The translations under genes and the position numbers were made by a program. From Shigella phage KNP5, in sequence record KX452698: a stretch of 64,000 bases of DNA, one strand, 5' to 3'. The notes under the pieces are model-generated. The model had not been told where the DNA came from and did not search any database. It worked only from the letters and a program-made list of their open reading frames with translations. This document shows positions 2,308-32,585 of this stretch, piece after piece (position 1 is the first letter of the stretch; the number at the start of each line of letters is the position of its first letter).

Positions 2308-2325
2308 AACTTTGTGCAATCTTTG

Positions 2326-2356
2326 GAAAATAAAAAAGGACTCCCGAAGGAGTCCT
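2326..2356 (-). terminator. rho-independent terminator
   Basis: Hairpin GGACTCC-TTCG-GGAGTCC followed by TTTTTTATTTT on minus strand. Confidence 0.6.
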
Positions 2357-2360
2357 CAAC

Positions 2361-2537
2361 TTATGCTTTCTGCTTACCAAAACGAGAAGCATCATCTCGA
2401 AGAACCGCACGTGCTCGGCGCATGATCTTCTCAACAGTTTGATTGATACGAGAGTTCGACCCACGCTTGTAACCAGCGCGTTTAGAATCACCAACTTTCT
2501 TTTCAACTGCTTTCTTTGCTTTAGCTTGTTTTGCCAT
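2361..2537 (-). CDS. small lysine-rich basic protein, about 58 aa (start trimmed to MAKQAKAKK)
   Basis: ORF track 2361..2579 trimmed to internal ATG; followed by hairpin plus T-run terminator; competing ORF 2252..2506 lies over regulatory sequence. Confidence 0.4.
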   Translation of the reverse strand: MAKQAKAKKAVEKKVGDSKRAGYKRGSNSRINQTVEKIMRRARAVLRDDASRFGKQKA

Positions 2538-2934
2538 TATAAATTCTCTTTTAAATGAAAATGCAGGACTTATTGGCATTGCCTGCGAAAGCCCTCAAGG
2601 GGTACTTAGGTTTTGAATATTTACCGACAGGATAACCATAAACCTCGTCAACATACCTTATAGCTCTTATCTGTTGCACACCGTTAGCTTAAAGGTTCCG
2701 GGTTCGATTTCTCGAGGATAAGATATATACTGATGGATATATAGGCCTTGAGGCGTACTCCCGATTAGCCATCACCTCGGGGTAGCATGCACTTGCCGCT
2801 ATAAGAATAACATTCAAGAGGTACACCGTAAAACTGCCGGGGTCTTAAAACTATAATGATTCGCAAATCATTAATCAGACAGTTCGACGGCTCCTCGTTT
2901 TAACTTCACACTAAGGCAGTGACTCTCCAATAAA

Positions 2935-3183
2935 TTACTTCAGTGTTACCACAAAGTGACGAACTGCTTTTCGTGCAGCAGAAGCCAGAGGCTTAGCATA
3001 TTTAAGTTCATCTTTTTCCTGAAGCTCAGCGGCTAATGCAGTTTGAGCAGGATTCAGATGTTTGAAATAACGCAGGATTTCAAGAGCTTCGGCTTCAACA
3101 TCAATAGATGCGCCATAGTTTTCGTGACCATTATTCCATGCGTTTCGTTGCAGTTCAAGAGCGTGTTGTAATTGTTTAATCAT
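2935..3183 (-). CDS. rIII: lysis inhibition accessory protein rIII
   Basis: 82 aa, matches size and position (between 30.x genes and 31) of T4 rIII. Confidence 0.75.
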   Translation of the reverse strand: MIKQLQHALELQRNAWNNGHENYGASIDVEAEALEILRYFKHLNPAQTALAAELQEKDELKYAKPLASAARKAVRHFVVTLK

Positions 3184-3322: not shown

Positions 3323-3330
3323 TATTTATA
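3323..3330 (-). promoter_or_regulatory. late promoter-like TATAAATA upstream of rIII
   Basis: Plus-strand TATTTATA just downstream of gene 31 stop. Confidence 0.4.
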
Positions 3331-3666
3331 TCACTTATAAAGACACGGAATAGCTTTATAGTGACAGGTAACGAATTTTTGTTTAATTTCTTTTGGCTGC
3401 TTAAGTCCCAAGGCTACAAAAGGATGCGGAACGTTTCGAATTTGACCAACTGGAAGAGAAGTCAAATCACCAACTTCGCAGAAACCTTCAGGAACATCAG
3501 GACCAACAGAGTGAACTACACACAGTTCAGGAACTTCACCTTGAACACGTTTACCGATAATAAGTCCTGATTCTGTAACTTCTTCATCACCGGCTTGTGC
3601 AGGTTCAGAAACTAAAATAACATATTCACCGACAGCACGAATTGGTAGCTGTTGTACTTCAGACAT
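3331..3666 (-). CDS. 31: GroES-like co-chaperonin gp31
   Basis: 111 aa, sequence [29 protein letters not shown] matches T4 gp31 as recalled; position upstream of cd. Confidence 0.9.
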
Positions 3667-4031: not shown

Positions 4032-4268
4032 TTATTTACCTATCACAGTTTTAATATGAGTTGTTCCACGTTCTTTAAGAGTGGAAAGCAATTTTTGGCA
4101 TTTTTCTAAATCAGATTTCCAACTATACGGCCTATCAATACTAGTCCAATCAGTTTTATAATACTGTTTCCATTTAGAGAAAAAATATTTCTTATACTCT
4201 ACAGCAAATGAAATGTTCTCGTTAGAATAAGAACTAATTGCTGTGAGCTGTACCAAACGAAATTTCAT
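4032..4268 (-). CDS. hypothetical protein, 78 aa (31.2-like by position)
   Basis: ORF track; abuts cd stop. Confidence 0.5.
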   Translation of the reverse strand: MKFRLVQLTAISSYSNENISFAVEYKKYFFSKWKQYYKTDWTSIDRPYSWKSDLEKCQKLLSTLKERGTTHIKTVIGK

Positions 4269-4849
4269 TATTCACCACAGAATTCGTTGATATTTTCCCA
4301 GTTTAACTTATTCAAGTTTTTCTTAGGAACATTAAACACTTCAATACCTGCATTTCGCAGAATATCATCCCAGCCAGGTTTATTTTTATCGTATGTTTCG
4401 CAATAAACCAGCTTTTTAATTCCAGATTGAGCTATCGCTTTTGCACAATCTGGGCAAGGAGAAAGTGTTACATACATAGTAGCACCTTCAATTGAAGAAC
4501 CGTTTCGTGCAGCAAACAAAATCGCATTTAGTTCAGCATGAATTTCATTTTTAGACGACCATTCAGAGTGAGCGCTACGGTGTTCTTTCGCCAAGACAAA
4601 ACGATCAGTTGAACCAAATGATACACATTCAGGCTTATGACCTTGAATGATAGTATGTTTAGGCTTATTCAGCAACCAACCTTGCTCGGCAGCATAATCA
4701 CAACAGTTCACACCCCCGGCAGGTGAACCATTATATCCAGTAGAAATAATACGTCCATTCTTTTCAATTACTGCTCCTACCTTCCAGGAGCAACATTTTG
4801 ATTCTTGTGATACTAAATATGCAATTTGAAGTACTGTACTCGCTTTCAT
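4268..4849 (-). CDS. cd: dCMP deaminase
   Basis: 193 aa; cytidine/dCMP deaminase zinc motifs HAELNAI and SPCPDCAK; T4 cd size and position. Confidence 0.9.
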   Translation of the reverse strand: MKASTVLQIAYLVSQESKCCSWKVGAVIEKNGRIISTGYNGSPAGGVNCCDYAAEQGWLLNKPKHTIIQGHKPECVSFGSTDRFVLAKEHRSAHSEWSSKNEIHAELNAILFAARNGSSIEGATMYVTLSPCPDCAKAIAQSGIKKLVYCETYDKNKPGWDDILRNAGIEVFNVPKKNLNKLNWENINEFCGE

Positions 4850-32062: not shown

Positions 32063-32074
32063 TAACTATACCAC

Positions 32075-32227
32075 TCAATTAGTTGACTTTGCTATAATAT
32101 CATCAGACGTTTGATTTGTAAACTGGTCTGTGTTATTTTCTTCAAAAATTTTTTCTACGAATTCCTTGAACGACTCACGTTCCTGAGCTACATTATGCTC
32201 GATTACTTTTTCAAGATTATGACTCAT
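32075..32227 (-). CDS. hypothetical acidic protein, about 50 aa
   Basis: Manual translation (below track size cutoff); ATGA overlap with arn stop. Confidence 0.35.
   Translation of the reverse strand: MSHNLEKVIEHNVAQERESFKEFVEKIFEENNTDQFTNQTSDDIIAKSTN
32091..32123 (-). promoter_or_regulatory. T4-type early promoter upstream of asiA
   Basis: Minus-strand GTTTAC and GATATTATAG -10. Confidence 0.5.
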
Positions 32228-32502
32228 TCGAAATAATCTTCAATTTCATAATCAAGAACATAAATCATTATAGTTTTTAATACATCATCAATACTTTTTC
32301 CTGGAGCTGGAATTACGTAAAAATATCCCGCCTTTGAATTATCTTTATAAGTTCCAACCAAGAAATCATTATTCTCAAGATGCAGTTCTTCAACTAATTA
32401 ATTAACAATTGAGTGGTATAAATTTGGTAGTAACTTGTATAGCTTTTCTAGAATATCAATTTTGATTGTGTATTGAACCACAGACTGAGAATCAATAATC
32501 AT
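32224..32502 (-). pseudogene. arn: arn (anti-restriction nuclease, McrBC inhibitor) interrupted by in-frame TAA
   Basis: 93-codon frame of Arn size (92 aa) and position; codon 35 is TAA at about 32398-32400; both halves in same frame; no ORF of 60 aa or more in track across 32063-32585. Confidence 0.5.
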
Positions 32503-32585
32503 AGACCTTCCCCTTATGTTTCTGTTTGCGATTAGATTCTTTAAACGCTTTCTTCTTATCTTTATGGACAGAAGCTTTATTAAAA

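Follow-up and report, generated by a model that had tools for sequence, protein, structure and literature searches.

What lies between rIII and gene 30.9 in Shigella phage KNP5? We analyzed 64,000 nucleotides (nt) of this phage (record KX452698; hereafter the window), a segment of a Tequatrovirus genome in which the initial annotation had drawn attention to positions 2580-2934: 355 base pairs (bp) without an open reading frame (ORF) of 60 or more amino acids (aa), said to be richer in GC than the surrounding sequence. An independent ORF scan gave exactly the same bounds, and at 43.4% GC, against a window mean of 35.8%, the interval ranks among the highest 2% of 355-bp windows. The stretch tested is 100% identical to Escherichia phage KNP1. 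Our comparisons across T4-like phages make it almost certain that the interval encodes an RNA of ~146 nt with the fold described below (2657-2802, minus strand; 46.6% GC). As an overall explanation we favor, at a probability of about 0.6, a self-contained, autonomous noncoding RNA that is made late and acts as a stand-alone binder with an accessory benefit to the phage.

A conserved fold in the rIII-30.9 interval

A BLAST search with the 355 bp showed the interval to be a mosaic. Its ends are common to Tequatroviruses, and T4-like phages of Klebsiella, Enterobacter, Edwardsiella, Serratia and Citrobacter, among others, share a central block of ~135 bp at 90-95% identity. This block also occupies the rIII/30.9 gap of Klebsiella phage HMGUkp2 and Edwardsiella phage PEi20, between flanks that cannot be aligned with the window. 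We aligned 17 distinct copies and used a covariance model, R1; counts of loops and invariant positions were made over 29 copies from two subfamilies, the second of which is described below. R1 matched a single copy in the window (178 bits, E=5e-41) at 2657-2802 on the minus strand, with an extension of helix P1 to 2805 that is specific to Tequatrovirus, and recovered further copies elsewhere, including diverged ones in Serratia phage PS2, Escherichia phage EcS1 and Erwinia phage Cronus.

The predicted fold consists of a closing stem, P1, and a fully paired four-way junction, with no unpaired nucleotide, that carries helices P2, P3 and P4. P1 is built from the element's own ends and generally has 4 bp; in the window copy it has 8, the 5´ strand CUUAUAGC (2798-2805, minus) pairing with GCUAUAAG at 2657-2664. 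The inner four pairs covary (AGC/GCU to AAC/GUU or GUAG/CUAC), with changes on both sides in three of the four. P2 comprises three pairs (P2a), a near-invariant 8/6-nt internal loop (AAGUGCAU/CUCAAG), ten pairs with two single-base bulges (P2b) and a 12-nt apical loop. P2a (GGC), the 5´ strand of the internal loop and the first P2b base, G, together read GGCAAGUGCAUG (2786-2797, minus), and the pattern GG.AAG.GCAUG in this part is invariant in 29/29 copies from both subfamilies. P3 is a 7-bp hairpin whose stem, UAUAUAU/GUAUAUA, covaries from U:A to C:G and from A:U to U:A.

The P4 domain (2665-2723, minus) is closed by seven pairs between UCUUAUC (2717-2723) and GAUAAGA (2665-2671), three of which change on both sides, and opens into a three-way junction. 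One arm, the P4a hairpin UCGA-GAAA-UCGA (2704-2715, minus), ends in a GNRA tetraloop in subfamily 1, where the loop reads GAAA, GUAA or UAAA; both sides change in three of its four stem pairs. The other arm, P4b, is a 5-bp stem around a near-invariant GGAACCUUUAAGCUAAC, with the junction strand GCAACA after it. The P4b loop, 3´ strand and junction, GGAACCUUUAAGCUAACGGUGUGCAACAG (2671-2699, minus), are more strongly conserved than any other part of the RNA; the pattern CC.GGA.CC ... GCUAAC.GUG.GCAAC.G is again invariant in 29/29 copies. About 45 nucleotides are invariant overall, concentrated in internal loops and junctions, and the invariant internal loop, the P4b loop and the junction strand are the probable business end of the molecule. 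Both strings that the initial annotation quoted for their GC content are present, GGTTCCGGGTTCGATTTCTCGAGG within the RNA in helices P4a and P4b, and GCCTGCGAAAGCCCTCAAGGGG outside it, in two downstream hairpins (D and E, below).

Covariation, strand and reading frames

Three explanations were offered at the outset, namely a degraded remnant, a regulatory site and a structured RNA, and covariation strongly backs the last. RNAalifold predicted 44 pairs from the 17 copies, 12 of them with compensatory changes. When the 17 sequences were aligned to the model (alignment A2), 99.3% of cells were standard pairs and 18 of 43 pairs changed on both sides; shifting the partners by 1, 2 or 3 columns left only 2-3 such pairs, and none of 500 shuffles attained the observed values. 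With the loop-loop helix described below added as a pseudoknot, 99.2% of cells paired and 19 of 46 pairs were two-sided, against 2-4 in the shifted controls.

The pairing also distinguishes the strands, with 99.2% of cells paired on the minus strand vs 95.9% on the plus strand, a difference made up of 26 G:U cells. A U:G pair closes P3 in 16 of the 17 sequences, GNRA loops are present on the minus strand only, and the RNA is co-directional with its neighboring genes at both loci where it occurs. Each frame on either strand contains on average more than two stop codons over the ~150-nt element, and all six are stopped across 2671-2699, the most conserved stretch. In copy L009, indels of 1 and 2 nt disrupt the reading frame, and the small ORFs annotated over the element disagree between phage records. 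Whereas the initial annotation would have given up a structured RNA for a short degenerate ORF with no conserved structure, we found the fold to be conserved and no reading frame to be. Taken together, the comparisons show a conserved fold, on the minus strand, in a noncoding sequence.

A loop-loop helix between P2 and P3

The hexamers UGAUGG in the P2 apical loop (2769-2774, minus) and CCAUCA in the P3 loop (2731-2736, minus) are predicted to form a loop-loop (kissing) helix. The two loops are perfectly Watson-Crick complementary in 29/29 copies, over 6 bp or, in one copy, 7 bp, and occur in six versions: CGAUGG/CCAUCG, UGAUGG/CCAUCA, CUAUGG/CCAUAG, CAAUGA/UCAUUG, UGCAUU/AAUGCA and UUGUAUU/AAUACAA. 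Non-cognate combinations give at most 5 bp, shuffled loops reached 6 bp in 1.4% of trials, and 98% of cells in the helix are paired. Three apical P2 pairs proposed by RNAalifold were dropped, since they vary on one side only and the loop-loop helix explains the same columns with two-sided changes. P2a and P3 together make 10 stacked pairs, the length of P2b. These lengths (3+7 vs 10 bp) fit an intramolecular contact, for which P2 would fold over at its internal loop and run alongside P3; the covariation itself is compatible with an intermolecular contact too.

A second subfamily at the uvsY locus

A short BLAST match in Yersinia phage JC221 led to diverged copies that score 68-84 bits with R1. 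This second subfamily comprises ~20 records, including the Slopekvirus phages phiEap-3 and K41P2, the Pseudotevenvirus GAP161 and JC221 itself. It retains every helix through wholesale compensatory replacement (P1, GUAG/CUAC; P4, UCCGUG/CACGGA; P4b, CCCGG/CGG replaced by CCUGG/CAG), and has the same invariant loops and its own versions of the loop-loop helix. At the P4a position it has a longer hairpin without a GNRA loop.

The locus is a different one: the RNA follows uvsY, uvsY.-2 and a tiny ORF and points toward the convergent uvsW.1, and no gene separates it from a bidirectional terminator. A late-promoter box stands 5-7 nt before P1, reading TATAAATA in phiEap-3, CATAAATA in K41P2 and JC221, and GTAAATAT in GAP161. 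In Klebsiella phage KP15, UvsY is identical to that of phiEap-3 and the same box and downstream sequence are found, cleanly without the ~160-nt RNA; RB43 also lacks it.

Presence and absence among close relatives

About 385-400 of 50,697 phage records carry the RNA, and by record taxonomy the carriers are Tequatrovirus, Kanagawavirus, Roskildevirus, Marfavirus, Slopekvirus and Pseudotevenvirus. In IMG/VR it was found at only 15 of 40 rIII loci. Comparing T4 and T2, as the initial annotation had proposed, proved decisive. Aligned with the window, T4 cleanly lacks a block of ~150 bp, and the insertion site is empty in both T4 and Shigella phage A2. T2 and the Mosigvirus FL31 carry a different, unrelated-looking insert of ~45 nt, UACUAUCAUGCGUCAGAAAAGUGUUAUCUGUGUAAGUCUUGGUGGU, at the exact site of the RNA (~2655-2809); because its ends faintly resemble those of the RNA, it might be an internally deleted remnant.

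Outside these phages, no match to the RNA was found in E. coli genomes, leaving host origin or mimicry unsupported, and the invariant motifs were absent from 185,579 bacterial and archaeal species genomes in GTDB. Scans of metagenomes and IMG/VR returned only T4-like contigs already represented, and no more divergent members. On this sampling, the RNA is shown to be restricted to T4-like (Straboviridae) phages of Enterobacterales, in which close relatives differ cleanly by its presence or absence at two unrelated loci.

Comparison with catalogued RNA families

Judged against the catalogued RNA families, none of which matches, the RNA is new. The tRNA, group I intron and other Rfam models that had been suggested for it were all negative on the element. 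ARAGORN found no tRNA or tmRNA genes across the whole window, and a TTCGA-like string that might recall a tRNA sits on the plus strand, the wrong one for the covarying fold. At E≤10, Rfam 15 gave no match overlapping the element in 1.2 kb and none at all in 171 nt. At the gathering score, it gave none in the whole window, introns, ribozymes, riboswitches, packaging RNA (pRNA) and ROOL/GOLLD included; the classes covered comprise group I and II introns, hammerhead, twister, twister-sister, hatchet, pistol, HDV and hairpin ribozymes, and all riboswitches. Nothing relevant was found by Rfam on the phiEap-3 copy of subfamily 2. Weak Rfam matches to Atu_C8 (E=4e-4) and Phe_leader were traced to the terminator after 30.9 (2322-2405, minus). 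With filters off, R1 scored at best 8.7 bits (E=0.3) in T4 66000-76000, away from rnaC and rnaD.

Several resemblances noted by eye were also rejected. The sequence UCUUAUC...GAUAAGA together with ACCCGGAACC recalls a SAM-I riboswitch, with no model match. The GGGAGUA bases that resemble a hallmark of the Mn2+ riboswitch are paired here and are not conserved in subfamily 2. By inspection, the internal loops fit neither a standard k-turn, nor an 11-nt tetraloop receptor, nor a T-loop. A search of the window for antisense targets of the invariant loops returned none except the element itself. In the literature searched, the sequence strings occur in no paper, and no RNA is described at rIII/30.9 or uvsY/uvsW.

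Flanking modules and promoters

Several smaller elements surround the RNA in the window, all on the minus strand. Module A (2844-2874), read from the sequence, comprises the AU-rich hairpin UUAAUGAUU-UGCG-AAUCAUUA and, behind it, UAGUUUU, and so has the look of a weak terminator for rIII. T4, T2 and Mosigvirus conserve it, and in Shigella phage A2 it is deleted. Between module A and the RNA, TTTACG-N17-TATTCT (2804-2832) resembles an early promoter, with its -10 hexamer on the left border of the insert. It adjoins a stem-loop and agrees at 10 of 12 positions with the early-promoter consensus TTTACW-N17-TAYWAT given for the PST/T4 PeSL elements (PMC4122927), scores below the threshold of a promoter scan, and is at this stage an early-type promoter by inference only. 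At the same position, T2 has TTTACG-N17-TACTAT, and T4 has lost the -10 hexamer. The late promoter of rIII, TATAAATA, lies further upstream at 3323-3330 and is annotated at the same place in phage SA21RB.

Downstream of the RNA, module C (2615-2649) is a hairpin, GACGAGG-UUUAUGGUUAU-CCUGUC with the loop GGUUAUCC, followed by GGUAAAUAUUC; its stem covaries. It is conserved across genera, is present in T4, and precedes the RNA in some phages and follows it in others (also at loci L003, L004, L044-L046 and L075). A G(U)UAAAUA-like box follows the hairpin, and module C could be promoter-linked or an RNA motif in its own right. Module D (2586-2605) is the hairpin GUACCCC-UUGA-GGGCUUUCG. In its general form, GUACCC(C)-loop-(G)GGGCUUG, it adjoins the RNA at both loci and on either side (in phiEap-3, L080:2658-2676); at the uvsY locus it follows the subfamily-2 RNA and stays where the RNA is absent. 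In KP15, a predicted late transcript would begin right at module D, which may thus be a 5´ stabilizer hairpin. Hairpin E (2553-2586), GCAGG...CCUGC followed by AUUUUCAUUU, was read from the sequence directly before the 30.9 ribosome-binding site and is conserved within Tequatrovirus. From one genus to another, the RNA and modules C and D follow each other in different orders.

The uvsY locus holds a further conserved stretch, ~190 nt between module D and the bidirectional terminator, below the late-promoter box (phiEap-3, L080:2650-2850). It is present in KP15 as well, is conserved between Slopekvirus, RB43 and JC221, has no conserved frame (a 1-nt indel shifts it in K41P2), and may be a second noncoding RNA.

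A probable stand-alone late RNA

The explanation that we favor takes the RNA to be an exchangeable module rather than a leader or riboswitch specific to 30.9. Such autonomy is rather likely, because the RNA occupies two loci, modules C and D are permuted around it, it can be the last element of a transcription unit, and relatives do without it. Late transcription is likely because subfamily 2 has its own late-promoter box, from which the RNA would be made at the uvsY locus. In the window, transcription from the rIII late promoter (3323-3330) would reach it by reading through the weak terminator of module A, with a possible contribution from the weak early-type promoter at the edge of the insert. 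The folded stand-alone RNA would then work through its invariant loops, which would bind a small ligand or else a protein of the host or the phage, a mechanism that we put forward tentatively, at somewhat short of an even chance. Its benefit to the phage would be accessory and dispensable, because T4, T2, KP15 and RB43 do without it.

Several observations weigh against this explanation. The copies are phylogenetically related, so that tallies of changed cells exaggerate how many independent events took place; sturdier measures are the variety of distinct pair types and the six loop-loop versions. The folding energy of the single sequence is no better than that of shuffled sequences (z ~ -0.8), so that the comparative evidence alone counts. 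The promoter-like boxes of subfamily 2 vary, GAP161 having no canonical box. No terminator follows the RNA, and its 3´ end is thus undefined. In most subfamily-1 phages, the RNA lies without a promoter of its own inside the rIII-30.9 transcript, an arrangement that a role in cis would account for as well. The trans-acting mechanism is a guess by exclusion.

A cis-acting mRNA element is the best of the alternatives, though in our estimate an unlikely one. It could be a processing or stability module, a put-like antiterminator or a riboswitch-like leader, here of 30.9. Subfamily 1 does lie in the rIII-30.9 intercistronic region, starting in several genera no more than ~10 nt from the rIII stop with no promoter of its own; in the window it is flanked by the terminator-like hairpins A and E, and it often adjoins the module D hairpin. 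The put RNA of phage HK022 is a processive antiterminator located directly after a promoter, and the Slopekvirus RNA likewise stands directly after one. Against a role in cis, subfamily 2 has only a convergent terminator and no gene downstream, the RNA, the promoter-like box and modules C and D are arranged differently from genus to genus, and the downstream sequences are the same in T4, T2 and KP15, which lack the RNA. P1, moreover, covaries freely, and no conserved alternative pairing is visible that could serve as an expression platform. The missing downstream gene, the lack of a conserved alternative to P1 and the variable position relative to flanking modules also led us to reject a riboswitch mechanism.

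Improbable in our view is an effector that acts without protein and is abundant late, either an aptamer-like sponge for a host signal or factor (for example, an immune second messenger) or a self-assembling RNA that would form rings or cages by P2-P3 loop pairing between molecules, in the manner of phi29 pRNA or ROOL/GOLLD; in both forms it would be exchanged among T4-like phages as a cassette.

A new class of self-cleaving ribozyme, cutting the polycistronic transcript and thereby releasing itself or separating the messages, seems slightly less probable again. Small ribozymes are common in phage genomes, and the compact fold, the pseudoknot-type brace and the ~45 invariant nucleotides in internal loops and junctions would suit one; the perfect four-way junction and conserved internal loops recall, in outline, the natural hairpin ribozyme. 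With no terminator and no subfamily-1 promoter, the ends must also arise by some processing. Against cleavage, no known ribozyme model matches, even at E≤10 on 171 nt, no conserved candidate cleavage site was found, and subfamily 2 begins at the 5´ end of its transcript, where cutting on the 5´ side would be pointless.

We give very little credence to an element acting at the DNA level (a recombination or endonuclease site, or an origin) or to a functionless, decaying remnant. The presence or absence of the RNA is clean at a site where T2 and Mosigvirus have a different 45-nt insert, and the region is hyperplastic, with shuffling driven by PeSL cassettes (PMC2839356, PMC4122927). The 26 G:U cells and the GNRA loops, however, make the two strands unequal and favor RNA, and six loop-loop versions have no obvious meaning in duplex DNA; cross-genus identity of 90-95%, invariant loops and covarying stems are the opposite of decay. 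Finally, a short protein-coding gene, such as the 64-aa JB75_0063A, is largely refuted: a 45-aa ORF spans 2689-2826 (minus) in the window, a 64-aa coding sequence is annotated in phage JB75 and several stem substitutions are synonymous in the 45-aa frame, but the frame stops before the 3´ 40 nt that are the element's most conserved part, is broken by the L009 indels, is truncated by upstream stops in Klebsiella phages (where the annotated ORFs differ from that of JB75) and has no counterpart shared by subfamilies 1 and 2, and two-sided compensatory change, including that of the loop-loop helix, is unexpected from coding constraint.

Relation to known phage and regulatory RNAs

In architecture, the RNA resembles the lysine and purine riboswitches, in which P1 closes a multi-helix junction and side-by-side helices are held by a Watson-Crick loop-loop helix (6 bp in lysine). 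Shared features are P1 with its junction, the helices braced by a loop-loop contact, the turn (here proposed) in the longer helix, and the invariant nucleotides in loops and junctions. Unlike these riboswitches, the phage RNA has a four-way junction without unpaired nucleotides for a ligand pocket, and has neither an expression platform nor, in subfamily 2, a downstream gene; there is no sequence or model similarity.

The pRNA of phi29-type phages, at 120-170 nt, also has two complementary loops that covary between phages. In pRNA, which is essential, the pairing is intermolecular and builds a ring on the portal; T4-type packaging is not known to need an RNA. Both are phage-encoded structured RNAs with two covarying complementary loops, here in six versions over 29/29 copies, but the RNA described here is dispensable (T4, T2 and KP15 lack it), its helix lengths fit an intramolecular contact, and no Rfam pRNA model matches it. 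The T4 RNAs rnaC and rnaD (species 1 and 2) are, by annotation, likewise small noncoding phage RNAs of unknown function, 119-139 nt long. They lie in the tRNA cluster, however, rnaC having a tRNA-like 3´ end, and T4 has both of them without having the present RNA.

ROOL and GOLLD, recently shown to form RNA-only homo-oligomers (PMC12286853), are also linked to phages or prophages, highly structured, sporadic and of unknown function. They differ in being 4-6x larger, in their bacterial hosts and in being in Rfam, and show no similarity to the phage RNA. PeSL elements are conserved noncoding modules of hyperplastic regions, located where indels that distinguish close relatives begin or end (PMC2839356, PMC4122927). 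Similarly, the insert in the window adjoins a stem-loop followed by TTTACG-N17-TATTCT (flank 2804-2874); PeSL cassettes are simple terminator hairpins with an early promoter, in contrast to a 146-nt multi-helix RNA with tertiary covariation. The PeSL-like flanks at most explain how the RNA is shuffled, not what it is.

T4-type phages have been much studied, and this RNA was overlooked, probably because T4 and T2 lack it. Constraint of this kind, with ~45 invariant positions in ~146 nt, a perfect four-way junction and loop-loop covariation in six versions, is usual only in ribozymes, riboswitch aptamers and RNA-protein machines. The RNA is also an accessory element that moves between genera and loci, is probably transcribed late and is limited to Enterobacterales phages, and accessory protein genes of such a profile have often proved to be counter-defense or host-takeover factors. 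Natural near-isogenic pairs (phiEap-3 and KP15; KNP1-like and T4-like phages) make the function directly testable, and adding the RNA to family databases would let spurious small ORFs in several of the records examined be corrected.

Neighboring genes and other features

The genes around the interval are all on the minus strand: cd (4268-4849), gene 31 (3331-3666), rIII (2935-3183; matching phrog_1457) and gene 30.9 (2361-2537), which encodes a small basic protein, matches phrog_1427 (unknown function) and is named after the T4 annotation. In alignments and in the annotation of other genera, conservation of 30.9 begins at MAKQ, the probable start, with its ATG at 2535-2537. The truly noncoding interval is thus probably 2538-2934, because 30.9 starts at MAKQ in other genera. 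The T4-style annotation gives 30.9 as 72 aa starting MPISPAF..., with a 14-codon N-terminal extension (2538-2579, minus) that is missing in other genera. A strong intrinsic terminator, GAGGACUCC-UUCG-GGAGUCCUU and a U-run, follows 30.9 within 2322-2405 (minus).

The 355 bp had also been described as the longest ORF-free stretch, which is wrong, as 32063-32585 (523 bp) is longer; the structured-RNA conclusion is unaffected. That longer gap is the arn/asiA small-gene region and is filled by ORFs of 41-50 aa, and another ORF-free gap, at 1-484, is an edge artefact of the window.

In Klebsiella-type phages (L003, L005, L008 and L010), a ~100-nt leader of 30.9 lies below the RNA, GGGAGC...GCUCCC followed by AUGUAUUUCUCC. 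Within it are three CGAAAG/CGGAAG hairpin loops; it has no relation to hairpin E of Tequatrovirus and looks like another structured leader. A small hairpin, UUGCC-GNRA-GGCAA (with a GUAA or GGAA loop), is a further shuffled module, located upstream of the RNA in L076 and L010 and downstream of it in L018.

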